Assembly (NCBI GenBank): GCA_025774555.1
Contig: JALGVT010000007.1
Coordinates: 17,327-81,326, forward strand
Direction of reading: 5' to 3'
Length of the DNA stretch: 64,000 nt
Origin: a candidate division LCP-89 bacterium
GTDB taxonomy: Bacteria; Electryoneota; B3-LCP
Positions 1,787 to 40,937 of this stretch are shown here, in pieces (position 1 is the first letter of the stretch; each line of letters begins with the position of its first letter). Both the position numbers and the translations under genes were made by a program. The notes under the pieces were generated by a model that saw only the letters and a list, made by a program, of their open reading frames with translations, had not been told where the DNA came from and did no database searches.

Positions 1787-1851
1787 TGTCATCCTCCGAC
1801 CTGTCGGGGGATCCAAGTTGTGTAGGGGCGCACGGCTGTGCGCCCTTTTTT
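1787..1851 (+). terminator. 3' element: tgtcatcc motif + hairpin (cctccgac/gtcggggg) + GTAGGGGCGCAC-GGCT-GTGCGCCC hairpin + T6; rho-independent terminator-like
   Basis: perfect GC-rich stem followed by tttttt; member of the GTAG-headed palindrome family seen after other T9SS genes. Confidence 0.6.
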
Positions 1852-1854
1852 CAA

Positions 1855-1901
1855 CCCCCCTTTCTTTTTCAAGGGGAGATTAAGGGGGGATCTGTTTTAG
1901 G
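1855..1901. repeat. Repeat family R (cccccc-T-rich-caagggg..taaggggggatctgttttagg), copy 1
   Basis: near-identical ~45-nt motif recurs at 35826..35879 and partially at 58875..58895. Confidence 0.6.
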
Positions 1902-2137
1902 AGCGATTCCCGCCGCGCTTCGCTTGCGGGAATGACAGAAAATCACCATCGAATATACCGCAATAAGGAAGATAATTTTGCTGAAATAGGGGCTGCCATC
2001 ATCCGCGTTCGCCTGTAAATCTTCGACATCCAGGGATGCAATGTAGGGACGAGGCGTGCCTCGCCTTCTGCGCCGACCCGCATATTCTATTCTCTTCGGG
2101 AATTGCTTGAATTACTGCTTCCGGTTCATTATATTTT

Positions 2138-2683
2138 GTGATGATCAATCTTGAACTGATAGCCGTTGCCATTGCGCTGGGATGCGATGCTTTTTCGGTG
2201 GCGATTGGGGTGGGGGCGCTGGGTTTGACCAAACGCCGCATCTTTCGTCTCTCCTGGCACTTCGGGCTGTTCCAGTTTTTCATGCCGCTGATCGGATTGG
2301 GCATCGGGCAGACTGCCGCCGGAATCATCGGCAGAAGCGGACACTTGATCGCCGCCGCCTGCCTCGCCGCTATCGGTATCAACATGATCAGACAGGCGCT
2401 GAGTAAGCGCAAATCCAGACGCGACAAGGTCGATCCAACGAAAGGCTGGCAGCTTATCATCCTGTCCGTTTCAACCTCAATCGATGCGCTGATCGCCGGA
2501 TTCGGGCTGGGGCTTATGGGAGTGCATGTCCTGTTTTCCTGCATAGTTATCGGCATTACCGCAGGGATCATGACGATGATCGGAATGTTGATCGGCGCGG
2601 GAGCATCCGCCACTCTGGGGAAAGGTGCGGAGATCTTCGGCGGGGTTGTACTGACCGTACTGGCAGTCATATTTCTGATATAG
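2138..2683 (+). CDS. mntP: Manganese efflux pump MntP (DUF204 family)
   Basis: 181 aa, 6 TM helices, internal repeat, N-terminal AIALGCDAFSVAIG motif characteristic of MntP. Confidence 0.75.
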   Translation: MMINLELIAVAIALGCDAFSVAIGVGALGLTKRRIFRLSWHFGLFQFFMPLIGLGIGQTAAGIIGRSGHLIAAACLAAIGINMIRQALSKRKSRRDKVDPTKGWQLIILSVSTSIDALIAGFGLGLMGVHVLFSCIVIGITAGIMTMIGMLIGAGASATLGKGAEIFGGVVLTVLAVIFLI

Positions 2684-2715
2684 ATTCTTCCACGGAAACG
2701 TAATTAATAACATAG

Positions 2716-20822: not shown

Positions 20823-20862
20823 CATAGAAAAAAAGTGTAAACTACTGCAAGGACATCAGCAA

Positions 20863-22270: not shown

Positions 22271-22299
22271 TTGACAAATACCAGCATAAAAGCCATAAT
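22271..22299 (+). promoter_or_regulatory. Putative sigma70 promoter (TTGACA-17-CATAAT) for 22318 gene
   Basis: consensus -35 and -10 hexamers with 17-nt spacer. Confidence 0.4.
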
Positions 22300-22317
22300 C
22301 AACTGCGGAAATTTATA

Positions 22318-24279: not shown

Positions 24280-24422
24280 CAGTTAGCAGTTGGCTGTTAG
24301 CCGTTAGTTTGGGCGATCTTAGGATTGCCCATTTACCTATATAACGTTTGATTTTTATCAGTACGTGCGTTATATTGGGATGAAGTTCATCTACATGAAA
24401 TTTGATAAGGCAGGAGGATAAG

Positions 24423-25559: not shown

Positions 25560-25577
25560 TTCATAAAGGAGGACACA

Positions 25578-27812
25578 ATGCGTCGTTTGATGATAATCTC
25601 CTTGCTTCTGATAGCTATATCCGCTTTTGCCCGTACAATCGACGACACCTACCACATGGGTTCAGCCGTCTTTGCCGGGGATTTCTACGATGTACTGTAC
25701 CACAACGGCTATGTCTGGATCGCCGACGGCGAGCAGGTCTATTCCGGAAACGTGAAGATCATGGACGTTTCCGATCCGGAAAATCCGTTCGTAGCGGCTC
25801 ATATCTCATACACAGACGGCTCTGCATTCCGGTTGGATGCTGAGGGCGATCTATTATTCGTCTCGGTCAAAGGGCACGGGGTGAAAATCTATAACGTCAG
25901 CGCCCCCCTCTTCCCTCTCTTTGTTGGTGAGTACACTGCAACCGAAACAATCAATGACATGGATGTTTTAGGTGATCTGCTCTGCGTCTTGGGCACGCAG
26001 ACGGGTCTTTCTATCCTGAACATCATCAATCTTTCAAATATCCAGACACTTTCACAGACAGCGATTTCAGGCAGCCGTTATTCACTGGCGGTAACCTCGG
26101 ACAGCCTGCTGAGCGTCGCCTCCGGTGCGACGGGACTTCAAATATTTACCATTGCCGATCCCGTCGCGCCGCGTCTTCTGGATACCGTCACCCTGGATCA
26201 GAAGACTTTCCACGACGTGGTCTGCAATGACACACACGCCTACGCCGTTTACCGCCGAACCATGATCAACAGCGGCGGATTTGCAGTAATAGACATCTCA
26301 AATCCTCCCAATTTCACTGTTTTAGCACAGCCTATAACCTTTGGGGTCGATCCTTTTCCAGACAACGGCTTATACCTGGCAGGAGATACTCTCTTTTTCG
26401 CTGCTACGCAGGGCGGATTCGGCGTGTGGAATATATCCGAACCTGAAAATCCATCGCGTTACGGCGGCTGGGGAGGAGCGGCTTTACCCGGGATTGTGGC
26501 GCGCTGGTCAACGAGGTGCACTTTCGGTGGAGGTTTTGCCTATAATATCTCCCCTGACCGCCTCCTGACGGATACAAAAAACGAAGCCTGTGTTTTCGAC
26601 CTATCCGACTTGACCGATCCACACCCTATCGGATTCTACGACGTTACAGACTGGGTAAAAGACGCGGTGGGATCAGGTGATTATGCCTATGTTGCTTCCG
26701 GCTCGGATGGTTTGCTGGTCGTAGATATTTCAGACCTGGAGAATCCGGTCATCGTTGGAGGCGAGGAACAGCACTTTATCAACTTGTCAGGCAGTAGTGT
26801 CCTGTATGAAAACGGTTACGCCTATGTCAGCGGCGGGTGGGTCGCCCTGAAGATATTCGATGTCATAAACCCTGAAAATCCCACTGTAGTCTCGACAGTC
26901 AATGAAGGTTGGGCATCCTACCGTGATATGGATAAACAGGATAGCCTGATTGCCGTTGTGGGGACGGGAATATCACCATCGCCGCCCGGCTGGTTAAGCA
27001 TCATTAACGTTACGGATGTTGCCAGCCCCCAGTGGATGGGGTATATCAATCTCGACGTCGGCGTTCACGGTATCGACCTAGTTGACACACTGGCTTTTAT
27101 TGGATACGCCGACGGTTTAGGAGTGTTGGATATCAGCATCCCGAATAATCCGGTATTGATAAGCTCGTATGATACCGGCGAAGGCGGGCAAGATGTGGTG
27201 GTAAGGGATAATATCGCTTTCGTGGCAGATCAATCCAACGGTCTGGTAATTCTGGACGTCAGCGATCCTTTCGATCCCCGTCCGATTTCATCACTGGACA
27301 CGCCCGGCTGGGCGATGGAATTCGAATTGGTCGGTGACTCTATATATGTAGCCGATTCAACAGCGCTGGTAATCATAGATGTATCAGATCTGCAAAACCC
27401 GGCAGTTGCCGATATTGTTCCGGTGCTGGGTTTCGCCCAAGGAATATCCGTTGATGATGGCCGCATATTCCTCTGTGATAATTACGGCTTTCACATCTAT
27501 ACACACGAATGGCTGGGTATAGCAGAGACAGGCGGAATATCTCAAATGCCAGTTGCATTTAATGTAAATTGTCATCCCAATCCCTTCAATCCGATCACAG
27601 CTATCAGCTTTCAGCTTTCAGCGGTCGGCTATGTGAATCTGGCGGTTTACGATGCTCAGGGGAGGCAGGTTGCTGAACTTATCAACGGCTGGCGGAATGC
27701 GGGTGTGCATGAAGTCACCTTCGATGCCTCGAATCTGGCGTCAGGTTTATATATCTACCGCTTGCAGGCAGATGACTTCACTGCCACCGGCAAGATGGTG
27801 CTGATGAAATAA
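25578..27812 (+). CDS. Secreted LVIVD-repeat beta-propeller protein with T9SS C-terminal sorting domain
   Basis: RBS aaggagg; signal peptide; repeated LVVVDISDLENP / LVILDVSDPFDP / LVIIDVSDLQNP LVIVD motifs; C-terminal HPNPFNPITAISFQLS...GKMVLMK. Confidence 0.8.
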   Translation: MRRLMIISLLLIAISAFARTIDDTYHMGSAVFAGDFYDVLYHNGYVWIADGEQVYSGNVKIMDVSDPENPFVAAHISYTDGSAFRLDAEGDLLFVSVKGHGVKIYNVSAPLFPLFVGEYTATETINDMDVLGDLLCVLGTQTGLSILNIINLSNIQTLSQTAISGSRYSLAVTSDSLLSVASGATGLQIFTIADPVAPRLLDTVTLDQKTFHDVVCNDTHAYAVYRRTMINSGGFAVIDISNPPNFTVLAQPITFGVDPFPDNGLYLAGDTLFFAATQGGFGVWNISEPENPSRYGGWGGAALPGIVARWSTRCTFGGGFAYNISPDRLLTDTKNEACVFDLSDLTDPHPIGFYDVTDWVKDAVGSGDYAYVASGSDGLLVVDISDLENPVIVGGEEQHFINLSGSSVLYENGYAYVSGGWVALKIFDVINPENPTVVSTVNEGWASYRDMDKQDSLIAVVGTGISPSPPGWLSIINVTDVASPQWMGYINLDVGVHGIDLVDTLAFIGYADGLGVLDISIPNNPVLISSYDTGEGGQDVVVRDNIAFVADQSNGLVILDVSDPFDPRPISSLDTPGWAMEFELVGDSIYVADSTALVIIDVSDLQNPAVADIVPVLGFAQGISVDDGRIFLCDNYGFHIYTHEWLGIAETGGISQMPVAFNVNCHPNPFNPITAISFQLSAVGYVNLAVYDAQGRQVAELINGWRNAGVHEVTFDASNLASGLYIYRLQADDFTATGKMVLMK

Positions 27813-27830
27813 AATACAACGGAGGATAGA

Positions 27831-29492
27831 ATGCGTAACACCGTCATTTCCATTCTCATACTGGGCGTGTTGACCGTTACGGGTAACTCCCAGACTATCG
27901 TCCCCGGTGGACCTGTGTCCGGGACCTGGACACAGGCGGGATCGCCCTACTTGATCGAAGGGGAAATTACCATCCCCGATGGAGAGACATTGAACGTAGC
28001 TCCTGCTGTGGAAGTCATTTTTCAGGGGCATCATAAGTTCATCGTTAATGGATACCTGGAAGCCACCGGGACAGCAGAGGATTCGATTATATTCACAGCA
28101 GCAGATACGAGCGAAGGCTGGCACGGCATTCGGTTCAACCATGCTCCTGATAGCAGCCACTTAATATTCTGCATCGTTCAATATGGTTATGCCACAGGGA
28201 GTGATCCTGAAGATTGGGGTGGTGGAATCCATATCTATAACTCAAATCCAGTCATTAGCCACTGCTTAATTGAGAGGAATTCGGCTGTGGTTGGCGGCGG
28301 GATTTGCTGCTGGTATTCCAATCCCACCATCGAAAACTGCATTATCAGCGAGAACACGGCTACGGGCGTCGGCGCCGTAGCTGGCGGTATTTATGGTTGG
28401 GAATCCAACCCAACCATCAATCAGTGTGTCATCACCGGGAATTTCGGCGGGGGAATCTACTCCTATGAGTCTGCTAACCCAATCATCAGTCAATGCACTA
28501 TTACCTGGAACGCCGGAGGGATTTATTGCAATGACTCTAGCCCAACCATTTCAAACTGCACGATTATTGGGAATTCGGCTAGTGATGCCGGAGGCGGGAT
28601 CACCTGTGCCTGGGGTTGCAACTCGATCATTTCTAACTGCATTATCAGCGGGAATTCGTCCATAAATGTTGGCGGCGGAATCGGCTGCTGGGATTCTGCC
28701 CCGACCATCGAAAACTGCACCATCAGTGGGAATTCAACTGGTATAGGTGGCGGTGGAATTTACTGCGAGCATGAACACGGCCCGACGATTGTGAATGTAA
28801 TTGTAGAAGGTAACATTGGAAATGGAGGCATTTACTTCAATGATTCCCCAAATGTGACTATCACCTACGGGGATTTTTACAACAACGAAGGGAGTAGTTT
28901 TATAGGAAATACCATACCTGCATATTTAGGTGAAATCGTAGCCATTAACACCAACGGCGATTCGTGTGACATTTTCTTCAATATCTACGAGGATCCATTG
29001 TTCGTTAACGAACCCTTAAGCGACTATCATCTCTCACCGGACTCTCCCTGTATAGACGCCGGGAATCCTTTTGTGCAATACAACGACCCGGAAGACCCTC
29101 TAACCCCCGGATATGCCCTCTGGCCAGCACAGGGAACGATCCTGAATGATATGGGAAACTCTGGAGGGCCTGGAGCAAGGGATTGGGTCGTAGGAATCAA
29201 GAAGAACCCCAGCTCGAGATCTGTGCCTTCTATTTTTAATTTACAGCAAAACTACCCCAATCCCTTTAATCCCTCGACGGTTCTCAGTTATCAGCTGTCA
29301 GTGGTCAGCAATGTTACCCTGTCGGTTTACGATGTGTCGGGGCGGAAGGTGGCCGAACTGGTGGATGGCTGGAGGGATGCGGGGCAATACGAGGTTACTT
29401 TCGATGCTTCCCACCTCCCTTCAGGTATCTATTTCGCTCGGCTGACGGCTGGAGATTTCACCTCTACTGGCAAGATGATTCTTATGAAATAA
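27831..29492 (+). CDS. Secreted parallel beta-helix repeat protein with T9SS C-terminal sorting domain
   Basis: paralogous N-terminus to 22318 gene (IVPGGPVSGTWTQAGSPYLIEGEI), GGGI(Y/C)C repeats, CTD YPNPFNPSTVLSYQLS...GKMILMK. Confidence 0.8.
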   Translation: MRNTVISILILGVLTVTGNSQTIVPGGPVSGTWTQAGSPYLIEGEITIPDGETLNVAPAVEVIFQGHHKFIVNGYLEATGTAEDSIIFTAADTSEGWHGIRFNHAPDSSHLIFCIVQYGYATGSDPEDWGGGIHIYNSNPVISHCLIERNSAVVGGGICCWYSNPTIENCIISENTATGVGAVAGGIYGWESNPTINQCVITGNFGGGIYSYESANPIISQCTITWNAGGIYCNDSSPTISNCTIIGNSASDAGGGITCAWGCNSIISNCIISGNSSINVGGGIGCWDSAPTIENCTISGNSTGIGGGGIYCEHEHGPTIVNVIVEGNIGNGGIYFNDSPNVTITYGDFYNNEGSSFIGNTIPAYLGEIVAINTNGDSCDIFFNIYEDPLFVNEPLSDYHLSPDSPCIDAGNPFVQYNDPEDPLTPGYALWPAQGTILNDMGNSGGPGARDWVVGIKKNPSSRSVPSIFNLQQNYPNPFNPSTVLSYQLSVVSNVTLSVYDVSGRKVAELVDGWRDAGQYEVTFDASHLPSGIYFARLTAGDFTSTGKMILMK

Positions 29493-29504
29493 ATCCCTCA
29501 GAAT

Positions 29505-29563
29505 TGTCATTCCGGGCGACGAACCGGGATCCGGTAGGGGCAACGCGTGCGTTGTCCTTTTTT
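29505..29563 (+). terminator. 3' element: tgtcattcc motif + GTAGGGGCAACGCGTGCGTTGTCC hairpin + T6
   Basis: same architecture as 1787..1851. Confidence 0.55.
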
Positions 29564-29876
29564 GTCTGTCTGCCGTCAATAATAAAATAATTCGATTTAG
29601 TGAAATATTTATCTTGTTTTCGTATGACATTTTACATATATTAATAGGATAAGTCATCTTTCAATTTGGTTTACCCGCTCAACTGGATTGAATTTTGCTT
29701 GTTACAATAAGATAAATGAGTGATATATCCACTCGTGAGATCGGTGTCGAACGCATCGGATGATGCCGAATCATGGTAATATCGAAGTAACTGCCACCGT
29801 GAAAGATACCGATATGAACTTGATGACAATAACATTAAAGGATAAATAACTGGAAAGAACTCAATCAGGAGGTGTT

Positions 29877-32810
29877 ATGAGAAGTTGCCTGCTTGCACTG
29901 TTTTGTGCATTGATTGCATTACCCGTAATTGCTGCTCCGGTGACTACCGCCGATCAAGCAGTAGATAAAATGGAAAAAATGGCTCTGCCTGACGGTAAAG
30001 ATGAAGTCATTCTTCAGGTGTGGGGTCCGGTTCCTGCCGGGACGGAAGTTCTGGGATGCAGTGAACACGTGATGACAACTCCCGCAGATGGGTACGTTAT
30101 CTTCATCGATGACTACCCGACCGCAAACCTGTTCCACCCGGTGCGCTATGCTTTCGTGAGTTCGGGTACCGGCGAGGTTACGGTTGTCGACGCGTCAAGT
30201 CCACCTGAGAATTATGCTGATTACGAAAGAATAGAGACGCGTATCTGGAACCAGCTATCCGCTCTTGAAAACCGCAGAGCGCCCAAGCCCGCCGCACCGC
30301 ACGAACCCATTGACAGCGACCGCTGGGCAGTTTTAATGAACGGCGGACACGATTCAGGCAACAACCATATCCGGTACTGGAACGATCTGTCGAATATCTA
30401 TATGGCTTTGAATGCGGTGTACGGTTTTGCTGATGACCACATCATCGTGCTCTGTTCTGACGGCTTGAATCCCGCGCCGGATCAATCGAACGGGCAGAAT
30501 TCCGATCCGGATTTGGACGGCGATGGCGATGATGACATCATGTTCCAGTGCGATCTGGCAAACGTGGATGCGGTATTCGCCAATCTGGTGACGACACTGG
30601 TGCCAGAAGATAAACTGTTCATATTTTCTACAGATCATGGCAGCAGCGATGGTGGCTGGAGCACTCATTTCAACCTCTGGAACCATGAAGAGCTGTTGGA
30701 TTCGCATTTCGCGTCTCTGCTGGCAGCCCTGCCCCAGTGTGAAGTCATCTGTACATTCGAACCCTGCTTTTCAGGCGGATTCTTAGATGACGTGGTCGTT
30801 CCTCCAGGACCGATAGTCGCTTCCTCCTCCTGCAGACATGATGAATATTCCTGGGCAATGCCGCCGGACTATATGTACGACACCTATGTATTTCACTGGA
30901 CAGCGGCAGTCAAGGGGGAAGACGCTTATGGTGTCGTCGTGGATGCTGATTACAACAGCGACGGCGTAGTTACCATGGACGAAGCGTTCATCTATGCCGA
31001 AATACATGATACTTCAGATGAAGAACCGCAATATGGCGACTATCCCGTTGGCATCGGGGCAGGGATTTCACTCTGGCCCACAGGAACGGGACCATTCCTG
31101 GTGGTGGCGGATAAGGAATTCGACGATATCGGCGGCAACAACAACGGCGCTCCGGATCCGGGTGAAACAGTGTCGATGTTGGTGACTTTGTCCAATGTCG
31201 GAAATGGAATAGCGGAAAACATTACCGGTACCCTTACAACAACAGATCCCTACTTGACAGTAACACAGAATTATGCCACATATCCGGATTTAGGGCAGTT
31301 TGAGCAGGGACAGGGAACACCCGAATATATGCTAGATATAAGTAGCGCCTGCCCGCAGGGTCAAAGCGTTGTCTGCGATATGCACATTACCGCTAACGGC
31401 GGCTACGAGAACGACGTGGTCGTGAGCTTCACAGTCGGAGACCCGGTGTACGATCCGTGCGGACCGGACAGTTACGGTTATATGGCGTACGACCCCTTCG
31501 ATGAACCGGAATTCCCGGTGTACGAATGGGTGGAAATCTGCGCTGATTCGGGTGGACCCGGGACGCTGGTCAACTTCACAATGGACGATGAAACCTTCCA
31601 ATTTGACCTGCCCTTCGATTTTCAGTATTACGGGCAGTCGTTCACGCGTTACACCATTGCGGCGAATGGCTGGATCGGTATGGGCGATATTCTAGAAGAC
31701 GATTACAGCAATTCCGGCATCCCTGACAGCGATGGACCGAACGGAATGATAGCGCTTTACTGGGAAGATCTGTCGCCGCAAAGAGTCAATTCGGGCAGAG
31801 TGTGGAACTGGTACGATGAAACCGATCACATGCTGATCGTGGAATACAACCACATCGAACAATACGCGCCGACGGGTTCGTTCGAGACCTTCCAAGTGAT
31901 CCTGCTGGATCCCGATTACTATCCAACTGGCACCAATGACGGACGCATAATATTCCAGTACAAAGATATGTCGGCGACCGCGCAGACTGAAGGAACTGTC
32001 GGCATTGAAAATCCCGGCGAAACGATAGGGTTGGAGTATCTCTACGACGGGTCGTATGATCTCCATGCATCGCAGATCAGGAATGAGATGGCGATTCTAT
32101 TCACCACGGTGGGCAGTGTGCCGGAAATGACTATCGCTCTGACCTATGTATCCGGATCGCCGGTTCCTGCCGGTGGCGGGAATATCTACTTCGACGTGTA
32201 TGTCGAAAACGCCGGATTGACGCCGTTGAGCTTCGATGCCTGGCTGGAGATAGTCTACGAGGGTGGCACGCCCAGTACGGTCGTGATGCGCTCCTTTACT
32301 AATTACCAACCCGGTTGGACGATCAACCGTCCCAATATGTTCTTCCCGGTGCCGGGCAGTTACGCCTCCGGCAATTACACCTTCACCGGCAAAGTCGGCG
32401 TTCACCCTTCAGTCGTCTGGGATGAGAGTGGTTTCCCGTTTGTTAAATCCGGGACCGATTACGTTGCAGGGTTTATACCGTGGGTGCCGGACGGTGTGCC
32501 CAACCCGTTTGATGAGATTGACAAGGGCGACGCACGCGTCGCCCCTACGGAGTTCACACTATTGGGCGCGTATCCCAATCCCTTTAATCCTACAACAGCT
32601 ATCAGCTATCAGCTTTCAGCGGTCAGTCTCGTAAACCTATCGGTTTACGATATATCTGGAAGAAAAGTAGCGGAACTGGTAGACGGTTGGAGAAATGCGG
32701 GTGTGCATGAGGCGACGTTTGATGCTTCTGATCTCGCTTCCGGCATCTACATCTACCGCATTGAAGCAGGTGATTTCAGTGCGGTGAGGAAGATGGTGTT
32801 GGTGAAATAA
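29877..32810 (+). CDS. Secreted caspase-fold cysteine peptidase (C25 gingipain-like) with pre-CTD module and T9SS C-terminal sorting domain
   Basis: RBS aggagg; signal peptide; FSTDHGSS (His) and CTFEPCFSGGF (Cys) dyad in gingipain/clostripain order; C-terminal 200 aa ~85-90% identical to 22318 gene module; CTD ...GIYIYRIEAGDFSAVRKMVLVK. Confidence 0.6.
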   Translation: MRSCLLALFCALIALPVIAAPVTTADQAVDKMEKMALPDGKDEVILQVWGPVPAGTEVLGCSEHVMTTPADGYVIFIDDYPTANLFHPVRYAFVSSGTGEVTVVDASSPPENYADYERIETRIWNQLSALENRRAPKPAAPHEPIDSDRWAVLMNGGHDSGNNHIRYWNDLSNIYMALNAVYGFADDHIIVLCSDGLNPAPDQSNGQNSDPDLDGDGDDDIMFQCDLANVDAVFANLVTTLVPEDKLFIFSTDHGSSDGGWSTHFNLWNHEELLDSHFASLLAALPQCEVICTFEPCFSGGFLDDVVVPPGPIVASSSCRHDEYSWAMPPDYMYDTYVFHWTAAVKGEDAYGVVVDADYNSDGVVTMDEAFIYAEIHDTSDEEPQYGDYPVGIGAGISLWPTGTGPFLVVADKEFDDIGGNNNGAPDPGETVSMLVTLSNVGNGIAENITGTLTTTDPYLTVTQNYATYPDLGQFEQGQGTPEYMLDISSACPQGQSVVCDMHITANGGYENDVVVSFTVGDPVYDPCGPDSYGYMAYDPFDEPEFPVYEWVEICADSGGPGTLVNFTMDDETFQFDLPFDFQYYGQSFTRYTIAANGWIGMGDILEDDYSNSGIPDSDGPNGMIALYWEDLSPQRVNSGRVWNWYDETDHMLIVEYNHIEQYAPTGSFETFQVILLDPDYYPTGTNDGRIIFQYKDMSATAQTEGTVGIENPGETIGLEYLYDGSYDLHASQIRNEMAILFTTVGSVPEMTIALTYVSGSPVPAGGGNIYFDVYVENAGLTPLSFDAWLEIVYEGGTPSTVVMRSFTNYQPGWTINRPNMFFPVPGSYASGNYTFTGKVGVHPSVVWDESGFPFVKSGTDYVAGFIPWVPDGVPNPFDEIDKGDARVAPTEFTLLGAYPNPFNPTTAISYQLSAVSLVNLSVYDISGRKVAELVDGWRNAGVHEATFDASDLASGIYIYRIEAGDFSAVRKMVLVK

Positions 32811-32819
32811 AATCTACCA

Positions 32820-32931
32820 TGTCATTCCGGCTTGTCCGGAGTCAGACATGGTTCATCCATCAGATACCCGGAAAGCGGGTATGACGGATGAACATAATAC
32901 GGTGGGTGATCCAAACGGGTCACCCTTTTTT
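32820..32931 (+). terminator. 3' element: tgtcattcc motif + two hairpins + terminator (gggtgatccaaacgggtcaccc + T6)
   Basis: stem-loops read directly; T-tract 32926..32931. Confidence 0.55.
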
Positions 32932-33040
32932 ACCCCTCTTTTTAAGAGGGATATGCTCGTCATTTTGTCAGGTCTTGTCCGTCGGCTAACGGATATGGCC
33001 CGACGCAACAGGTAATAATGTGGTATGGTTGAAAAAAAGC

Positions 33041-33193: not shown

Positions 33194-35778
33194 TTGAAAA
33201 AGGGGGTACAGATGAAAAAGACGAGTTTAGCATTACTGCTATGTACGCTGATAGCAGGACTGGGTTATACTCAGAATATCAGCGGACCGCAATCAGGGAC
33301 GCTCGGACCGGGAACCTACATTGTCGTAGGCGACATTTCTGTCCCGGCGAGTCAGACCCTGACGATTGTGCCGGGAACCTCGTTCCTGCACAACGGCGCC
33401 TGGAGATGGGATATCTCCGGAACGTTGAATGCTGAAGGGACCGAATCCGACAGTATTTACTTCATCCGACAGAATCCGACAGCCGCTAATCGCTGGAAGA
33501 GTATCCGCTTCCAGTCGGGCGCGTCCAGCGCGAGCACACTGGATTACTGCGTCATCGACAACTGTAACATCCCCAGCGGATCGTCCTACAATGACAAGGG
33601 CGGCGGTATCTATTCCAATGGTGTGTCCATAACGGTTACCAACAGCAGGATATCCAATTGCGATGCTTACTGGGATGGCGGCGGCATTTAAACTGCCTGA
33701 TCGTGGATAACACCGCTACATCCGGCGCTAATGGTGGCGGTATTTACCTGAACAACTCAGATGGAGCGTTCATCGCCTACAATGTAATTGCACGTAACTC
33801 TGCAACCGGCACGTGAGGCACCTGTGGAGGTGGCGGGATCCGCTGCTACAACTCAGATGCTGTAATTGCCTACAATCAGATTTACGACAACACTTCCGTG
33901 TACTACGGCGCTGGTGTATTAATCTACGGATGCACTCCGAATGTAGTTAATAACACCATCACACAGAACAGGTGCACATCCACATCTACGTCCGCAAAAG
34001 GTGGCGGGACCTATGCTGCAAGTGGAAGCCTTGCCGGTCGCAACAACATCATTTACAACAACATTGCCACGACCAATCCAGAAACCTATGGAACTGTCAA
34101 TGTCACCTATTCGTGCTGCTCGACAGTTTTGACCGGAACGGGCAACATCACAGATGATCCGATGTTTGAAGACGATTTCAACCTGACCTGGGGATCGCCC
34201 TGCATCAATACCGGCGATCCGAATGCTCCTTTAGATCCTGATGGAACCCGCGCCGACATGGGCGCGCTCTACTTCCACATGGGACCCGGCTTCGAGGAAC
34301 GTCCTGATGAACCGACCGATTTCACGGTTTCGCACAACAACGCGCTGTTGACGGCTACGCTCGATTGGACTAATCCAAGCATGACTGTCGGCGGCAGCAC
34401 ACTGACGGAGTTGACAGGCGTTCTCGTCTATCGAGATGAAGCGTTAGTTGATGACGTCACCGACGTTGTCATCGGCGCTCCGTACAGCTATGACGACACC
34501 ACGGTTCCGGTCGCGGGTATTTACGATTACGTGATTGTGCCTTACAACTCCTACGGTGAAGGTCTGGATGCGGATGCGTCTGCCTGGATTGGATTGGACA
34601 CGCCAGCAGAAGCGCAAAATGCCGCAGCCTTCCCGCATTGGGGTTATGAACTGAGCTGCTTTTTGACATGGGAGAATCCGTTGGTTGGTGAACATGGCGG
34701 GTATTGGCCCCAAGGAAGTTACCTCGGTCAAAAGGTATATCGTGACGATGTGGAAATAGCTGATTTAGCGGGAAGTAATAACTACTACACCGATGCAACC
34801 ATCCCGGAAACAGGGTTTTACACGTACAGCATATCCTATTATAACGAAACCGGAGAAGGTGTGGTTGTCGATTGCGATCCGGCTCCTGTCTATGTGGGTA
34901 TGCCGCAATTTGAGCAGATTCCGTATGACTGGGTCGAAATCAGCGTAATTGGGACGAATACCGGCGTCACCGGCGACGATCAGACTCTGGGACCGTTTAA
35001 CATCGGCTTCAATTTCCCCTTCTACAACGAAGAAGAATTTAACCGTGTCTGGATCTGTTCAAACGGCTGGATGTCCTTCCAGTTAACCACTTCAACGGCG
35101 TACACTAACGCGGCAATTCCCAACGGGCAGACTCCCAATAATCTGCTGTGCCCCTACTGGGATGACTTGACTCCGTACACAGGCAGCGGGATCTACTATT
35201 ATCATGACGTCGCCAATGAGCGTTTCATCGTTCAGTACGACGATGTGCCGCACTATAGCACAGGCGGATCATATACATTTGAAGTGATCTTATACACCGA
35301 TGGAAAGATCGACTTTATGTACAATGAAATGATCCACGGCACGGCAAATTCCGCGACAGTTGGATGCGAAAACGCTGCAGGAGACGAGGGACATCAGGTG
35401 ACGTATAACGGTTCCGGTCCCCTTAACCCTGAAAACGAAATGGGAATACGTCTCTATGTTGCCGCGGAACCGCCCACTGACGTTACCACTGACCCGGGAT
35501 TGGAAACGACGCCGGATGAATTCGCATTATATCAAGCGTATCCCAACCCCTTTAATCCGACGACAGCTATCAGCTATCAGCTTGCAGCGAGTAGCCTTGT
35601 CAACCTGACAGTCTACGACATCGCAGGGCGAAAGGTGGCTGAGCTGGTCAACGGCTGGCGGAATGCAGGTATGCATGAAGTCAACTTCGATGCATCTAAC
35701 CTGGCATCAGGCATATACCTCTATCGCCTGAGTGCCGGTGATTTCACTGCATCCGGCAAAATGGTGCTGATGAAGTAA
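33194..35778 (+). pseudogene. Disrupted beta-helix / T9SS-CTD cargo gene (frameshift ~33688 and in-frame TGA at 33814..33816)
   Basis: ORF 33194..33691 ends within GGGIY repeat; beta-helix repeats continue in the -1/+2 frame (LNCLIVDNTATSGANGGGIYLNN...), interrupted by TGA, then continue as ORF 33898..35778 ending in T9SS CTD. Confidence 0.55.
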
Positions 35779-35825
35779 GGTAAAACTAAAAACTTAGAAC
35801 TCAAAACTTAAAAAATACCCCCCAG

Positions 35826-35879
35826 CCCCCCTTTTTTTCAAGGGGGGAGTAAGGGGGATTTGTTTTAGGGACAGCCCCG
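35826..35879. repeat. Repeat family R copy 2
   Basis: gccccccTTTTTTTCAAGGGGGGAGTAAGGGGGATTTGTTTTAGG matches 1855..1901. Confidence 0.6.
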
Positions 35880-36005: not shown

Positions 36006-37523
36006 ATGTCGAAGCTAATTACTTTCTTCATCGCTTTCGCGATATTGATCCCTTCTTCCTTTGCTGCAACGATTCATGTCCCCGGGAATTATGCCACAAT
36101 ACAAGCTGGTGTAAACGCAGCAGCCAATGGTGATACCGTACTTGTTGGACCGGGAACGTACACCGAAAGCGTTACCATTCAGAACGTTACCATCCATCTT
36201 CTTACCTCAAACGGACCGGACGCGACCAAGATTATAAGAACCGGCTCCGGATTGATCAGCTGTCTGACCGTCTATACATCTTCTGAAATCAGAGGTTTCA
36301 CGCTTGAGCGATCTGGCGCGTATTTGACGGCTGCTACACTCCAGGTTCTCGATGGAAGCCCGCTCGTTCATCACAATCTCATCAAATGTATCGCAGAAGG
36401 TGTGATCTGCGTGGAGATTGCAGGATCCGGCTCGCCTCAATTTCTGAACAATACTCTGTATGGATTGGATGATGACTTCAATTACGGATTCAAAGTCACT
36501 TCATCGGCAGTCTGCCCGACGATAAAAAACAACATCGTCTACTTGAATCCTTCGATTTTCGGGCCGGAATACGGTATTTACAATCAGGCTGGCGCCGCCA
36601 TCATTCATACGTACAATGATTTCTACCAATGCACTTTATCCGGAACCTCTCTGGGGTTGGGTGAGATTCAAACCAATCCACTGTTTGTCGGGGGAAGTCC
36701 GTACTCCTATCACCTTCAATCAAACTCCCCCTGCATTGACACGGGAGTCCCTATATTTACCGACCCGGACTTCACGCGAAGCGACATGGGATGCTTCTAT
36801 TATGATCAGGGCACATTATCCGTCAATGTAACCGTAACCCTGACACCGGATACCATTCCTGTGCAGATTCCTGCTTCTGGAGGTAGTTTTGACTATAACA
36901 TCGCCGTTGCGAACCCTGAAGCCTTCTCGGTTCCAGCTAATGTGTGGTTTATGATAACTCTTCCGAGCGGTGTGTTGTGGGGCCCTATACAGAACCCAAT
37001 TAACGTGAACCTAAATGCTGGTTTTAGCGGCAATCGTGACAGGACCCAATTTATACGAGGCTCCATATCGCCAGGCAGCTATACTTATCACGCGTATATC
37101 GGTCTTTACCCCGGCATAATCTGGGATCACTCCTGCTTTGGCTTTGAGAAATTGATCACCGGCGGTGAATCAGAAGTGTATGATTGGTACTGCACTGGTG
37201 AAAGCTTCGATGAGTGGCAGACTACACCTGAGATTGATATCTCAGCTGAATTTAACTTGCGAGGCGCGTACCCCAATCCCTTTAATCCCTCGACAGCTAT
37301 CAGCTATCAGCTTTCAGCGCTCAGCTTTGTGAACCTTGCTGTTTATGATCTATCGGGACGGAAAGTTGCCGAACTGGTCAATGGCTGGCGGGATATTGGC
37401 AGCCACGAAGTAACCTTTGACGCTTCTGATCTGTCATCCGGCATGTATTTGTACAAACTTCATGTGTCGGGGTCAGGGGTGATCCCGACTATTGATACCG
37501 GTAAGATGGTGCTTATGAAATAA
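36006..37523 (+). CDS. Secreted pectate-lyase-fold beta-helix protein with pre-CTD module and T9SS C-terminal sorting domain
   Basis: TIHVPGNYATIQAGVNAAANGDTVLVGPGTY N-terminus; CTD YPNPFNPSTAISYQLS...GKMVLMK. Confidence 0.8.
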   Translation: MSKLITFFIAFAILIPSSFAATIHVPGNYATIQAGVNAAANGDTVLVGPGTYTESVTIQNVTIHLLTSNGPDATKIIRTGSGLISCLTVYTSSEIRGFTLERSGAYLTAATLQVLDGSPLVHHNLIKCIAEGVICVEIAGSGSPQFLNNTLYGLDDDFNYGFKVTSSAVCPTIKNNIVYLNPSIFGPEYGIYNQAGAAIIHTYNDFYQCTLSGTSLGLGEIQTNPLFVGGSPYSYHLQSNSPCIDTGVPIFTDPDFTRSDMGCFYYDQGTLSVNVTVTLTPDTIPVQIPASGGSFDYNIAVANPEAFSVPANVWFMITLPSGVLWGPIQNPINVNLNAGFSGNRDRTQFIRGSISPGSYTYHAYIGLYPGIIWDHSCFGFEKLITGGESEVYDWYCTGESFDEWQTTPEIDISAEFNLRGAYPNPFNPSTAISYQLSALSFVNLAVYDLSGRKVAELVNGWRDIGSHEVTFDASDLSSGMYLYKLHVSGSGVIPTIDTGKMVLMK

Positions 37524-37534
37524 AACGCAGAATG

Positions 37535-37589
37535 TGTCATCCCGGACTAGATCCGGGATTGAGTAGGGGCGAGATCACCTCGCCCCTAC
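37535..37589 (+). repeat. 3' element: tgtcatcc motif + hairpin (tcccgga/tccggga) + P1-variant GTAGGGGCGAGATCACCTCGCCCCTAC
   Basis: perfect 12-bp GTAG-headed palindrome. Confidence 0.6.
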
Positions 37590-37684
37590 AAGTGAAAATA
37601 TACAGCCCGGTCATGTGCCGCACACAACCGGACAAGAGGATAAACGGCAAATATTAATAATCTCATAATTACTAGGGCAAGACC

Positions 37685-40600
37685 GTGAAAAAGATAATCG
37701 CTGTTACTATTGCGCTTTTATCGATGGCTGCAGTATCATACGCTATCACGCTTCATGTTCCAGGAGAATATCAGACCATTCAGGGTGCGGTTGATGCAGC
37801 TAACCATGGAGACACTGTACTCGTTGCCGCAGGAACCTATGAGGAGAGCGTCATCATTGAGGATGCTGCTATATGCCTCATGAGCGAGGATGGTGCGCGC
37901 GTTACCAGAATTATGGTGATGGGCAGCAGCAACGACCACGTTGTTGCAGTGCACAACTCTTCCGAGATTTCAGGCTTCTACCTTTATCGTGCTGCGTCTT
38001 ATTGGTCGGGCGCTTCACTCAAGGTGTACGATGGAAGTCCTTACGTCCATCACAACCTCATAGTATGTAATTCCGAAGGCGCATGCTGTGTTGAAATCGC
38101 CGGTTCTGGAACGCCCTTATTCCTTAACAATTCACTGGACTGCCCGGTAACTCCTGACGCTACTTATGCCTGGGGCTTTCATATCTCTTCAGCGGATGCT
38201 GTCCCGACCATGAAGAATAATATCGTACGCGCGCCTGACTGGGGATGGGATCCGGGTTATTGTATTTACAATCAGGCTTACGCAGATCTCAATCATACCT
38301 ACAACGATTACTACATCGGCACTCTGTACGGCACACAGCTTGGATTAGGCGAAATTCAGGAAAATCCGCTATGGGGCGGTGTATGGCCCTCATACGATCT
38401 GACGTCGAATTCACCCTGCATCGATGCTGGTATTCCTACCTTACTTGATCCCGATTCGACACGGAGCGATATGGGGTGTTTTTACTATCATCAAATAACC
38501 TACCCCCCAACCATCACATCAACACCCGATACGATGGGTTTCGCCGGTCTTCCGTATTCCTACCAATTAGTTTTTGATGCTAACCCGTTTCCAGAATTTG
38601 AATTGTTGACATATCCAGCAGGAATGACAGTTGATACTGCCGGTCTGATTGAGTGGAATATACCTGTCACTGCCGTGTACGATACCGTTGTCAGTGTGCG
38701 AGCCTACAATATCTTTGGTGAGGATTTGCAGGAATATCCCCTGCATGTTCTTGAAAATACCAACCATCCTCCAGAAATCACTACCTATTCACCATTAGTT
38801 CTGGACAGCCTGGATTATCGCGATGAAGTCGAATTCTCAATCACGGCGATCGATCCAGATCTCGATCCCTTGACCTATTCCTGGGAATTGAATGGTGAGG
38901 AGATATCTACTGATACGAGTTGTACGATCAGCTTTTCAGTACTTGGCAATAATGAACTCACAGCCCGTGTCTCCGATCCCTGGGAATCGGACAGCGTTAG
39001 TTGGCAGCCGTTTGTTCGGGGTACAGCTGTGAGTGGTAATGTGAGCGGCACCTGGATCAGTGCTGCGAGTCCGTACGTTGCCTCATCGGATATCACCATT
39101 CCAACCGGCGCTACACTCGTTATGGCGCCCGGTACAGTTCTATATCTCGGCGATAGTACTCATTTGATTGTACAGGGACACTTAGAGGTGGTGGGTGTTG
39201 AAGCCGACTCCGTTTATATACTAAAGGACGGGATGGCTTCCAGCGGCGGTGTCAGGCACGTCCAATCAGCTACATCTTCATCTTTGATTTCATATTGCAG
39301 AATTGAGGCTGGAAGCTGGTGTGTTTCAGCGGATAATGTTGGAGCCCAATCGATTGCAGTTTATAACAGCCATCTCCAGGCTGCCTATGGTATCCATACT
39401 GCGAATGTGGAAAACATTGAGGCGCGGGATTGCCGGATTATCGCCTTGAATACCGGTGTTTATTCATATTCTATAAATATAGTTACTGTTGTGGATTGTG
39501 AATTCAGCATAGGTAAAGGAGTCTATATTAATGGGGCATATAATGTACAAGTAATCAATAACGTATTTGACGTTAACAATATCGCAATCAGTGTGCATGG
39601 CGGGTCAAGTATCTGTCTTATTGAAGGTAATGAGATTCACACTTCGTATTATATCGGTATCGAAGCGTGGGGATGTCTGCAGGATATATTGCTGACGCGA
39701 AATATGCTCTACGTGGTAGGAACGCCTGCCTGGGATTCTTATGCATTCCATATTGTGGATAGCGACGTCGAAATCCTGAATAATACTGTCGTATTAGAAT
39801 ACCCGGGGCGAGTTGTCACTATCGGATCAACCTATGGATCGGTGAATGTTCGTAATAATATCATGTACGGTGCAGGGGGAGGACCTGCCATCTATGCCTA
39901 CGCTGTAAGTCCAAACAGTGTCATCGAATATAACGATTTTTTTGGATTCGATTCACTGTATTACCACGTCTCACCCGGCGAAGGTAATGTTACCGAAGAT
40001 CCTCTCTTTGTGGGCGGTGATCCGTATTCCTACGAATTGCAGGCGGGCTCACCCTGTATCGATGCAGGCGATCCAACCAGTCCGCCTGATCCGGATTACA
40101 CCAGGGCGGATATGGGTGCTTACTACTTCAATCAAGGATTTGCACCATCACTTGAAGTGAACCTGACACCTTATAATCCACCTGTTCAGGTACCGGCTTC
40201 CGGTGGAAATATCGATTTCAACATCGAAGCAGGCAATACCGGATCGAGCCTTGCTACTTTCAGTATCTGGTGTGATATTACACTTCCCAACGGTAACAGC
40301 TATGGGCCAGTGCTGGGTCCGCTTAGCGTCACAATGAATGCAGGGTGGAGTGCTGATCGTGATCGAATCCAACAGATTCCTGCGATTGCTCCGGCAGGTG
40401 TTTACAGTTACAGCGCCTACGTGGGGATCTACCCGGACATTGTGGCTGATATGGACAGTTTTGATTTCGAGAAGCTGACAACGGGTGATGGGCCGGTCGT
40501 TATCGGGTGGTTGAACAGTGGTGGAGATTTCGATCTCTGGATGGTGGGCACGCCTGATCTGATTCCCGCAGAATTTTCGTTAGAGACAGCCTATCCCAAT

Positions 40601-40831
40601 CCGTTCAATCCTACGACAATTTTAAATCTACAGTTGCCTGAAGCTGCTGACGTGAAACTACACGTCTATAACATCAGAGGCAGTCTGGTGGCAGTATTGA
40701 TAAATGGCTGGAGAGATGCGGGATCCCACGAAGTGGTATTCGATGGTTCGACTCTCTCTTCCGGTATCTACATCTATCGCCTGCAAGCCGGCGAACACCA
40801 CGAGGTCGGCAGGATGGTGCTGATGAAGTAA
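37685..40831 (+). CDS. Large secreted beta-helix protein (paralogue of 36006 gene) with T9SS C-terminal sorting domain
   Basis: GTG start, signal peptide, ITLHVPGEYQTIQGAVDAANHGDTVLVAAGTY, pre-CTD module homologous to 36006 gene, CTD YPNPFNPTTILNLQLP...GRMVLMK. Confidence 0.8.
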   Translation: MKKIIAVTIALLSMAAVSYAITLHVPGEYQTIQGAVDAANHGDTVLVAAGTYEESVIIEDAAICLMSEDGARVTRIMVMGSSNDHVVAVHNSSEISGFYLYRAASYWSGASLKVYDGSPYVHHNLIVCNSEGACCVEIAGSGTPLFLNNSLDCPVTPDATYAWGFHISSADAVPTMKNNIVRAPDWGWDPGYCIYNQAYADLNHTYNDYYIGTLYGTQLGLGEIQENPLWGGVWPSYDLTSNSPCIDAGIPTLLDPDSTRSDMGCFYYHQITYPPTITSTPDTMGFAGLPYSYQLVFDANPFPEFELLTYPAGMTVDTAGLIEWNIPVTAVYDTVVSVRAYNIFGEDLQEYPLHVLENTNHPPEITTYSPLVLDSLDYRDEVEFSITAIDPDLDPLTYSWELNGEEISTDTSCTISFSVLGNNELTARVSDPWESDSVSWQPFVRGTAVSGNVSGTWISAASPYVASSDITIPTGATLVMAPGTVLYLGDSTHLIVQGHLEVVGVEADSVYILKDGMASSGGVRHVQSATSSSLISYCRIEAGSWCVSADNVGAQSIAVYNSHLQAAYGIHTANVENIEARDCRIIALNTGVYSYSINIVTVVDCEFSIGKGVYINGAYNVQVINNVFDVNNIAISVHGGSSICLIEGNEIHTSYYIGIEAWGCLQDILLTRNMLYVVGTPAWDSYAFHIVDSDVEILNNTVVLEYPGRVVTIGSTYGSVNVRNNIMYGAGGGPAIYAYAVSPNSVIEYNDFFGFDSLYYHVSPGEGNVTEDPLFVGGDPYSYELQAGSPCIDAGDPTSPPDPDYTRADMGAYYFNQGFAPSLEVNLTPYNPPVQVPASGGNIDFNIEAGNTGSSLATFSIWCDITLPNGNSYGPVLGPLSVTMNAGWSADRDRIQQIPAIAPAGVYSYSAYVGIYPDIVADMDSFDFEKLTTGDGPVVIGWLNSGGDFDLWMVGTPDLIPAEFSLETAYPNPFNPTTILNLQLPEAADVKLHVYNIRGSLVAVLINGWRDAGSHEVVFDGSTLSSGIYIYRLQAGEHHEVGRMVLMK

Positions 40832-40842
40832 CACACAGAGTG

Positions 40843-40937
40843 TGTCATCCTGGACTTGATCCGGGATCCAGAAAATGTCGGAGTCGGGGACGACTCCGAC
40901 TACGGAGAGGTAGGGACGCACGCTGGTGCGCCTTTTT
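40843..40937. terminator. 3' element: tgtcatcc + hairpin + P2 palindrome (40877..40905) + GTAGGGACGCAC-GCTG-GTGCGCC + T5; bidirectional terminator with convergent leuC
   Basis: stem-loops and T-tract read directly. Confidence 0.55.

Follow-up and report, generated by a model that had tools for sequence, protein, structure and literature searches.

Hairpins following T9SS cargo genes belong to two described families of small palindromic repeats

The hairpins that follow five T9SS cargo genes in the window (the entire 64-kb stretch of DNA analysed here) are new members, and only that, of already described families, the CGTC/TGTC NTS-like repeats and the GTAG REPs. They very probably form a BIME/NIME-like mosaic of two unrelated REP families, piled up 3' of a variable T9SS cargo cluster; the finding is an ordinary one, since the element is a patchwork of two known kinds of small-hairpin repeat. 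Judging by its sequence, the first module, with a TGTC tag, a 7-9 bp stem started by AT, a short loop and a C(C/T)A tail, is a CGTC/TGTC-tagged REP (SRM) of the Neisseria dRS3/NTS type. By the same token, the second, a GT(A/G)G tag followed by a G-rich stem, belongs with the GTAG-tagged REPs that RAYT (REP-associated tyrosine transposase) enzymes process. The first-pass annotation had described a single conserved structured element, a view that does not hold for two independent repeat superfamilies that are each also found alone.

A motif search of the 64-kb window confirmed the five annotated TGTCATYC positions near stop codons, all on the + strand (1787, 29505, 32820, 37535, and 40843; copies A to E). 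The window contains 12 occurrences of this motif versus 5.7 expected, a number reached by none of 100 shuffles. The motif is indeed close to the stop codon, at distances of 13, 12, 9, 11, and 11 nt for copies A to E, respectively, rather than the 10-60 nt given previously. All five upstream ORFs (ending at 1773, 29492, 32810, 37523, and 40831) carry the Pfam domain Por_Secre_tail, and all five copies are in the sense orientation relative to the upstream T9SS gene. Such repeats generally sit just past stop codons (published REPs are found <20 bp from ORF 3' ends, and head-to-head dimers and intragenic copies have likewise been described), which accounts for their location here; the spacing in the window is tighter than in other phyla.

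The arms of the first hairpin match their earlier description. Copy A (1785..1818, + strand; 16.9 bits, E 0.04 with the family model R1) follows the Kelch T9SS gene 70-1773 and consists of the TGTC tag, the arms ATCCTCCGA and TCGGGGGAT around a cctg loop, and a CCA tail. Its inverted partner A' (1900..1939, - strand; 20.1 bits, E 0.006, and structural scan) has the TGTC tag, the arms ATTCCCGC and GCGGGAAT around a 12-nt loop, and a tail C, and forms a head-to-head dimer with copy A at 1787-1937; the inverted gggaatgacag reported at 1941-1951 is present, albeit at 1928-1938. Copy B (29503..29536, + strand; 19.3 bits, E 0.0098) follows the beta-helix T9SS gene 27831-29492. Copy C (32818..32847, + strand; 12.4 bits, E 0.57, and structural scan), with a degenerate tail, follows the C13-peptidase T9SS gene 29877-32810 and is paired into a dimer with the inverted C' (32858..32888, - strand), which was recognized by the structural scan and reads CGTC, ATACCCG-ctttc-CGGGTAT, and C; C' is graded weak because it scores only 9.9 bits (E 2.5) with R1. 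The suggestion of a MITE-like bounded unit thus survives in spirit, as A and C are TGTCAT...ATGACA head-to-head dimers. Copies D (37533..37565, + strand; 38.1 bits; tail C changed to T) and E (40841..40873, + strand; 43.4 bits; near-canonical TGTCATCCTGGACTTGATCCGGGATCCAG), both part of the R1 training alignment, follow T9SS genes 36006-37523 and 37685-40831, respectively. R1 matched these five copies and two inverted partners and nothing else in the window. The published SRM regular expression exactly matches one copy of the five (copy B) and, with one mismatch allowed, three of them, including A and E.

CGTC/TGTC REPs have been described as having 8-9 bp stems that open with complementary AT, 4-5 nt loops and a CCA tail, and as forming head-to-head dimers; they are equivalent to dRS3 (Di Nocera, De Gregorio and Rocco 2013, PMC3733652). 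The Neisseria NTS is CGTCATTCCCGCGMAVGCGGGAATCYRG, and GIY-YIG Ssn nucleases cleave the NTS-like "Ssn-related motif" in its single-stranded form (Chenal 2025, PMC11893778). In the Ssn systems studied elsewhere, binding depends on the C that follows the palindrome and cleavage on the GTC tag, with the DNA cut a few nucleotides 5' of that tag. The window copies resemble the CGTC-1 to -4 repeats (including dRS3, NTS, and SRM) in the unpaired (C/T)GTC tag, the A-T and T-A pairs opening the stem, the stem and loop lengths of most copies, the C(C/T)A tail with the C required for SsnA binding, the head-to-head dimers, the location <20 bp past ORF ends and the covarying stems, and copies D and E are nearly identical to the cross-phylum consensus TGTCATCCCGGACTTGATCCGGGATCCA. 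The GTC tag is kept in all seven window SRMs and the tail C in six. The differences include the host, a member of the FCB group that has not been cultured and is closest, among named relatives, to LCP-89 and Zixibacteria MAGs; the degeneration of several copies (7-bp stems in B, C, and C', long loops of 8 or 12 nt in B and A', one tail C lost); and an extra CAGA(A/G/C)(T)(G) that all but one of the five sense copies have immediately 5' of the tag.

The canonical form of the first hairpin, TGTCATYCYGGA-N3-7-TCCGGGAT, was found at no fewer than 120 loci across many phyla, mostly as TGTCAT...ATGACA dimers among the matches listed, and at one locus a GIY-YIG ORF lies between two copies. The covariation, previously and rightly interpreted as selection on the hairpin, is strong in an alignment of 78 family members picked by their flanks only, in which stem positions pair in 90.9% of cells versus 71% in shuffles, both-sided change occurs at 7 of 8 stem pairs, and compensatory cells number 124 versus 36. 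By analogy with other systems, these hairpins would be bound as ssDNA by small GIY-YIG Ssn endonucleases and could spread or persist either singly or as head-to-head dimers, and those of the second module would be processed by RAYT tyrosine transposases. The 64-kb window contains no cd10448-type GIY-YIG (Ssn) gene, and Ssn is thus a putative partner of the first module in this organism. Because Ssn and RAYT read the tag and the hairpin shape, the stems can be expected to diverge through compensatory substitutions and the tags to stay constant, which would produce the covariation observed. The covariation is best explained by such ssDNA hairpin recognition, and no RNA role for secretion genes needs to be invoked.

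The second hairpins belong to a larger population: GTAGGGRC occurs 18 times in the window versus 2.0 expected, and there are ∼16 GT(A/G)G-headed hairpins. A GC-rich hairpin follows every TGTCATYC copy. It was said to begin with GTAGGG(G/A)C, which holds for four of the five (1822, 29534, 37563, and 40910), the second hairpin of copy C (32902) starting instead with GGTGGGTG; the T-tracts reported for four of them (from 1846, 29558, 32926, and 40933), but not for copy D, were all found. The terminator-like hairpins with T-tracts, all on the + strand, are the GTAG-tagged, REP-like GTAGGGGCGCAC-ggct-GTGCGCCC (1822..1851) and GTAGGGGCAACG-cgtg-CGTTGTCC (29534..29565), the GTGG-headed GGGTGATCC-aaac-GGGTCACCC (32902..32931), and the GTAGGGAC-headed hairpin (40910..40937). 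The GTAG REP after copy D (37563..37589, no strand assigned) is a perfect palindrome, GTAGGGGCGAG-atcac-CTCGCCCCTAC. Copies C and E have further hairpins between the two modules, including the second-class GTAG REP GTAGTCGGAGTCG-tccc-CGACTCCGAC (40877..40903, - strand), which recurs at 50974-51000 and 51094-51120. The unstranded 27-nt GTAG REP GTAGGGGCGAGGTTACCTCGCCCCTAC is found upstream (45042..45068) and downstream (47308..47334) of T9SS gene 45193-47160, in frame within the CTD of T9SS gene 49406-51151 (50945..50971), and, with the loop base A, 27 nt past the stop of T9SS gene 51226-53121 (53149..53175). Its exact sequence is present on >120 metagenome contigs, with RAYT-like genes on 17 of the 120 matches listed.

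At a distance of 1.3 kb from copy E, NCBIfam NF047646 (84.5 bits, E 6e-24; equivalog cut-off 80) and Pfam Y1_Tnp (38.5 bits) identify a RAYT gene (42217..42780, - strand). Its 5' end is overlapped by the REP GTGGGGCAGACA-ttct-TGTCTGCCAC (42734..42759, - strand) and its 3' end by an inverted copy of it (42240..42264, + strand), a REPtron arrangement. Like the GTAG REPs of known REPtrons, REPINs, and BIMEs (Nunvar 2010, PMC2817692; Bertels and Rainey 2011, PMC3116915; Di Nocera 2013), the window repeats have a GTAG/GTGG tag, G-rich 8-13 bp stems, short loops, many copies, inverted REPs at both RAYT gene ends, mosaic clusters with other repeats, and in-frame intragenic copies. Unlike those, they include at least three stem classes under one tag (GTAGGGGC, GTAGTCGGGGTC, and GTGGGGCAGACA); the RAYT-flanking class, with a GTGG tag and a distal stem unlike the GTAGGGGC copies, differs from the abundant one; and a T-run replaces the closing CTAC in some copies. 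The arrays also resemble Neisseria NIMEs and E. coli BIMEs, as small palindromic repeats interleaved in intergenic regions by genes for surface or secreted proteins, but they mix CGTC-type with GTAG-type repeats and hold few copies each (2-4). In-frame insertion of 8-20 residues into surface loops without breaking the ORF is shared with Rickettsia palindromic elements (RPE) and other intragenic REPs. RPE-4 and RPE-6 have been equated with CGTC REPs (Di Nocera 2013, PMC3733652), whereas the intragenic copies of the window are of the GTAG type and lie in the C-terminal sorting domains of T9SS genes and in the preceding linkers.

The window SRMs all adjoin T9SS genes (5 of 11, versus 0 of 26 other genes; Fisher p = 0.001, or p = 0.07 among + strand genes of this one 64-kb window), and GTAGGGGC-type and class-2 GTAG REPs are all in or beside T9SS genes, save for the two that overlap RAYT. 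A tolerated niche alone does not fully account for this adjacency. The host might use the repeats as cassette boundaries, with ssDNA cleavage shortening incoming homologous DNA, as proposed for the Neisseria NTS, and thereby modulating how T9SS cargo genes and the C-terminal sorting domains they encode recombine, undergo gene conversion or turn over. This is consistent with the same-orientation SRMs on both sides of genes 29877-32810 and 37685-40831 (an "NTS-gene-NTS" layout), the four extra genes of the cargo cluster compared with relatives, the in-frame REPs in CTD loops and linkers, and the precedent of NTS around Neisseria surface-antigen genes (PMC11893778). Such a role is nevertheless unlikely: the association comes from a single window, that window has no Ssn gene (cd10448-type GIY-YIG), none of 12 CTD genes on other contigs is followed by an SRM and one by the 27-mer, and purely selfish elements would also accumulate in variable regions.

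A structured 3' UTR RNA of T9SS cargo mRNAs, acting in stability, termination or translational control, is a very improbable reading and is largely refuted. It could draw on the five sense copies 9-13 nt past the stop, the G-U pairs in stems A, B, C, and E and the T-tract hairpins after four copies, and stop-proximal REPs, within ∼15 nt of the stop codon, can reportedly reduce translation in E. coli (work of Liang, Rudd and Deutscher in 2015). However, all five composites fold as separate adjacent hairpins, without co-folding of the modules; modelled as ssDNA, copies A, C, D, and E are far more stable than their shuffles (z between -4.8 and -7.9), and copy B is not (z -0.9). No Rfam family matched, and SsnA is inactive on RNA (PMC11893778). 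The repeats are missing after 6 of the 11 window T9SS genes and at the C13-peptidase T9SS gene and neighbouring cargo genes of two relatives, where orthologous T9SS genes have plain hairpins in their place; they are therefore regarded as lineage-specific gains. A restriction to T9SS genes fails beyond the window: the hairpins occur independently of one another and of such genes, inside ORFs, beside tRNA genes, and within RAYT-like genes, and genomes with the first include those of Proteobacteria, CPR, Treponema, and Nitrospira, among others, many of them from phyla not known to use T9SS.

The least probable reading, a conventional MITE (a DDE-type IS deletion derivative with TGTCAT...ATGACA TIRs, mobilised in trans as dsDNA), fits the inverted ends of 1787-1937 and 32820-32888 but not the three singletons among the five copies, the dimer ends without a target-site duplication visible on direct reading, the mutually unrelated dimer interiors, the window without a DDE transposase gene beside such ends, or the covarying, self-folding stem of each "TIR," which suits REPs recognized as ssDNA and not DDE TIRs.

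A mosaic of two REP families leaves room for side effects on the adjoining genes. The four GTAG/GTGG hairpins with T-tracts look like intrinsic terminators, so the earlier terminator reading stands for these but not for copy D. They share with Rho-independent terminators a GC-rich hairpin followed by at least five T, and differ in carrying a GT(A/G)G REP tag, dispensable for a terminator. Such hairpins could serve as the genes' own terminators, and, once transcribed, may shield mRNA 3' ends.

The TGTCATYC-headed hairpins noticed in the first-pass annotation (copies A to E, at 1787, 29505, 32820, 37535 and 40843 on the plus strand) do follow five genes for T9SS cargo proteins. They begin 13, 12, 9, 11 and 11 nt, respectively, past the stops of the ORFs that end at 1773, 29492, 32810, 37523 and 40831, and all five of these ORFs encode the C-terminal sorting domain (CTD; Pfam Por_Secre_tail), which is found in 11 genes of the window. 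The hairpin arms vary among the copies with their complementarity kept, and CAGA(A/G/C)(T)(G) precedes the tag in four of the five sense copies. The window contains 12 matches to TGTCATYC, versus 5.7 expected, and 18 to GTAGGGRC, the head of the second hairpin, versus 2.0 expected. Folded as single-stranded DNA, four of the five composites of the two hairpins are much better than their shuffles (z-scores from -4.8 to -7.9), with a z-score of -0.9 for copy B. The T-tracts lie where they were first placed. The GTAGGG(G/A)C head ascribed to the second hairpin is present in four copies, copy C being headed instead by GGTGGGTG, and the inverted motif close to copy A spans 1928-1938, rather than 1941-1951. 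The feature is real. Its reading as a 3' element dedicated to T9SS genes lacks support; the two hairpins are new members of two known superfamilies of repeats.

The first hairpin has the anatomy of the CGTC-tagged REPs, which carry the tag CGTC or TGTC, stems of 8 to 9 bp starting with complementary AT, loops of 4 to 5 nt (loop variants are also on record) and CCA tails, form head-to-head dimers, and correspond to dRS3, RPE-4 and RPE-6 (Di Nocera et al. 2013, PMC3733652). The NTS of Neisseria, CGTCATTCCCGCGMAVGCGGGAATCYRG, includes dRS3, and related repeats, the SRMs, are found on either side of ssn genes in various phyla (Chenal et al. 2025, PMC11893778). SsnA, a small GIY-YIG nuclease, binds and cuts the NTS solely as single-stranded DNA; it requires the GTC tag for cleavage, and its binding depends critically on the C that follows the palindrome; strand-specific binding and cleavage of single-stranded DNA have been demonstrated for the Neisseria and Wolbachia enzymes (PMC11893778). 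The CGTC-tagged REPs of 2013 and the NTS-like SRMs of 2025 are the same superfamily, and copies A to E fit its anatomy. Together with the inverted partners of copies A and C on the minus strand (A', 1900-1939, and C', 32858-32888), there are seven SRMs in 64 kb, all of them intergenic and five of them 9 to 13 nt past stop codons; A and C each form a head-to-head dimer, and copies B, D and E stand alone. All seven have TGTC or CGTC immediately 5' of the stem and stems that begin with AT, 8 to 9 bp long in A, A', D and E and 7 bp long in B, C and C'. Five copies have loops of 4 to 5 nt; the loop of B is 8 nt and that of A' 12 nt long. The palindrome is followed directly by C in six of the seven (T in copy D), and by the full CCA tail in A and E. 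The GTC tag, the cleavage determinant of SsnA, is thereby retained in 7/7 copies and the binding-determinant C in 6/7.

The published SRM pattern, HGTCWYN(0-2)YYVSBRHN(0-5)WNVSBRGN(0-2)RNCYNB, matches copy B alone exactly and three of the five sense copies with at most one mismatch, at which level it is hardly enriched in the window (15 versus 7.5). This pattern being too strict at zero mismatches and too loose at one, a covariance model of the first hairpin (R1), built from 54 cross-phylum copies plus D and E, was used in an unfiltered search instead. The scores of E (43 bits) and D (38 bits) are high by construction, both being in the training set; the inverted copy at 1900-1939 scored 20.1, B 19.3, A 16.9 and C 12.4 bits, and the inverted partner at 32858-32888 was a weak match. 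In the window, R1 recognized nothing beyond copies A to E and their two inverted partners.

The covariation of the stem persisted when more copies were aligned. Among 78 family members chosen by their flanks and loop ends, not by pairing, the 8-bp stem is paired at 90.9%, versus 71% in shuffles and 21 to 44% with the partner slid, and 7 of the 8 pairs change on both sides, giving 124 compensatory cells versus 36 in shuffles; all six inner pairs are formed in 61 of the 81 flank-chosen candidates. The supposed restriction of the hairpin to T9SS genes did not survive a scan of one genome per species, in which TGTCATYCYGGA-N3-7-TCCGGGAT was found in at least 120 loci. The matches listed include Beta- and Alphaproteobacteria, CPR, Fibrobacter, Treponema (Spirochaetes), Nitrospira, Elusimicrobia, Ignavibacteria, Zixibacteria and others, and among them the SRM family is mostly found in phyla not known to use T9SS. 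The usual cross-phylum layout is an inverted pair, TGTCAT-hairpin-ATCCATG ... CATGGAT-hairpin-ATGACA. Both REP superfamilies are reported to lie mainly downstream of ORFs, mostly less than 20 bp from the 3' end, with some copies intragenic (Di Nocera et al. 2013, PMC3733652), so the position of the window copies near stop codons follows a known rule in its direction. In other phyla, the TGTC side lies within 20 nt of the end of a frame of at least 100 codons in 23 of 129 copies, and the opposite side in 6 of 129; this asymmetry is not taken as a sign of function, because the tags face outward in head-to-head dimers and the <20-bp rule has already been published. Searches against Rfam, at the gathering threshold on the whole window and with E-values up to 5 on the 29.4- to 41-kb segment, recovered nothing but a tRNA and chance-level matches. 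The window encodes no ssn gene of the cd10448 GIY-YIG type detectable by a motif scan or by tblastn with a GIY-YIG ORF of a betaproteobacterial MAG (locus L058), an ORF located there between two SRMs.

The second hairpin belongs to the GTAG-tagged REPs, which are defined by a terminal GTAG (with GTRG and GTGG as accepted variants), a stem of 6 to 13 bp and a short loop. The window contains about 16 hairpins headed by GTAG or GTGG, their stems 8 to 13 bp and their loops 3 to 5 nt long. The 27-mer GTAGGGGCGAGGT-N-ACCTCGCCCCTAC is found in four exact copies, at 45042, 47308, 50945 and 53149, and in a near copy at 37563; a class-2 GTAG REP, GTAGTCGGrGTCG..., is found at 40877, 50974 and 51094. The exact 27-mer is also present in at least 120 metagenome contigs, and 17 of the 120 fetched loci contain RAYT-like genes. 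A literature search with 9-mers of the GTAGGGGC hairpin returned solely unrelated primer and probe matches. A tyrosine transposase of the REP-associated type (RAYT) is encoded in the window itself, by an ORF at 42217-42780 on the minus strand (NF047646, 84.5 bits with a cut-off of 80; Pfam PF01797, Y1_Tnp, 38.5 bits) that lies between leuC/hacA-like and PorV-like genes. Inverted GTGGGGCAGACA hairpins (42734-42759 and 42240-42264) overlap both ends of this ORF, and no further copy of this hairpin type was found within the window. Judged by sequence, the RAYT gene and its inverted hairpins are a candidate REPtron; the only features that might link this RAYT to the abundant GTAGGGGC class are the common tag and G-run. 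Four of the five second hairpins (1828-1841, 29536-29559, 32904-32925 and 40917-40930) match the pattern of a GC-rich hairpin followed directly by a T-run, as in a terminator, and that of copy D has no T tail.

Ten or more divergent RAYT-like genes of various metagenomes (L122, L123 [609-635], L127, L129, L132, L146, L169, L194, L223, L233 and L237) carry the exact 27-mer in frame, encoding GRGEVTSPL, always at the same position: a loop of variable length that separates the HUH motif (MPNHxHGII) from the 'AYFKYQSTK' segment. These transposase-like genes, with a hairpin of their own target type inside the ORF, match NF047646 with E-values of 1e-13 to 1e-16; the sample is biased, the loci having been fetched by the 27-mer.

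In the window, 5 of the 11 T9SS genes, and none of the 26 others, are followed by an SRM (Fisher p = 0.001); limited to genes on the plus strand, the association has p = 0.07. None of the 12 CTD genes on other fetched contigs is followed by an SRM. The nearest relatives are MAGs of the LCP-89/Zixibacteria type with 63 to 79% amino-acid identity; the C13-peptidase T9SS gene recurs at their syntenic loci, together with further cargo genes that end in ...KMVLMK*. Two such loci, L245 and L247, contain neither an SRM nor a GTAGGG REP after the C13-peptidase gene or the neighboring T9SS cargo genes, which are followed there by plain hairpins. SRMs are also missing from the syntenic housekeeping loci L241, L242 and L244, which shows just that the repeats are not ubiquitous. 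In L245 (7995-10000) and L247 (7973-10000), genes for a pilin, an anti-sigma factor and an ECF sigma factor are followed directly by the C13-peptidase gene; in the window (20205-29876), four additional genes (22318-29492), three of them for T9SS cargo and one AlaDH-like, come before the peptidase. Genes have been gained in the cargo cluster, and the repeats, absent from the orthologous T9SS loci of the relatives, are lineage-specific additions to this variable cluster.

The tight spacing of 9 to 13 nt, the common CAGA and, in the window, the confinement to the T9SS cluster leave some small room for a host role of the repeats in the turnover of cargo genes. By analogy, in this uncultured FCB-group bacterium, CGTC-type hairpins targeted by an Ssn and GTAG-type hairpins targeted by a RAYT might not be mere tolerated junk: they might delimit T9SS cargo genes and decorate their sorting domains in frame, with a nuclease or transposase acting on single-stranded DNA to drive or gate how secreted-protein cassettes are shuffled, gained and lost. 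Such a system, which we consider improbable, would correspond, in a non-proteobacterial host, to the NTS clusters around Neisseria surface antigens; a T9SS link that held across the genome, and not just locally, would point to a role of ssDNA-hairpin nucleases in the turnover of secreted-protein repertoires well beyond Neisseria. A structured 3'-UTR RNA specific to T9SS genes is made very unlikely by the spread of the first hairpin over at least 120 loci in many phyla, its absence at the relatives' orthologs and the 0/12 count at CTD genes elsewhere. Nor do the two hairpins make up a single unit: their spacing varies between -3 and 63 nt and other repeats intervene, each is found alone elsewhere, and the composites fold as independent neighboring hairpins. 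As to the MITE-like bounded unit hinted at first, copies A and C are indeed head-to-head dimers, and a DDE-type MITE is very unlikely, as inverted ends are present in only 2/5 copies and a direct reading revealed no flanking direct repeat.

The hairpins are thus best described as members of the CGTC- and GTAG-tagged REP superfamilies, here interleaved within the same intergenic arrays. Going by the enzymes in the cited papers, the SRM hairpins would be recognized and cleaved as single-stranded DNA by an Ssn, and the GTAG REPs would be processed by a RAYT; the preference for the 3' ends of ORFs is likewise on record there. The covariation would then reflect enzymes that read a fixed tag and the shape of a hairpin, and the genome can be expected to encode an Ssn, of which the SRM copies probably are, or were, substrates. 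The copies with T-runs may terminate transcription, and the hairpins may stabilize the 3' ends of mRNAs. A covarying hairpin after one class of genes can mimic a regulatory RNA; its assignment to genome-wide palindromic repeats removes this false lead and adds an LCP-89/Zixibacteria-like lineage to the known hosts of the NTS-like/SRM repeats and of GTAG REPs accompanied by a RAYT.

Some of the repeats are located inside T9SS genes. In the gene at 49406-51151, the 27-mer and a class-2 REP (50936-51000) are inserted in frame in the CTD loop after 'GINGRN', adding about 20 residues (VGTVGARLPRPYTSGSGTTPTT), and another class-2 REP (51094-51120) precedes 'ASGKIVLIK*', adding about 8 residues; the ORF remains open. 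The same 27-mer is found in the same CTD loop of a metagenome gene (L199, 1052-1078). Such in-frame GTAG REPs in T9SS sorting domains amount to an RPE-like decoration of secretion signals. Half-palindromes at 1488-1511 and 32521-32548 encode the linker before 'PTEF..YPNPFNP' in the genes at 70-1773 and 29877-32810, respectively.

Two further repeats accompany T9SS genes. An identical 29-nt direct repeat, GGATTATTCGGATTGCGCGGATGAATGTT, is found at 45005-45033 and 47271-47299, in each case 8 nt 5' of a 27-mer REP. Its copies flank the T9SS gene at 45193-47160 and may be parts of a larger composite repeat; in L237, the 27-mer is preceded by a similar sequence, '...cggatgaat'. The repeat CCCCCCTTT(C)TTTTTCAAGGGG(A/G)G..TAAGGGGG, which forms a hairpin of a C-run and a G-run with a T-run in between and may be a bidirectional terminator, is found at 1855-1888 and 35825-35857, in the 3' regions of the T9SS genes at 70-1773 and 33898-35778, with a shorter version at about 32932-32950. 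The syntenic region of a relative, on a 480-kb contig, also contains a Cas12f1-like/TnpB ORF (L244, 386-1726; Pfam Cas12f1-like_TNB), which is unrelated to the repeats.
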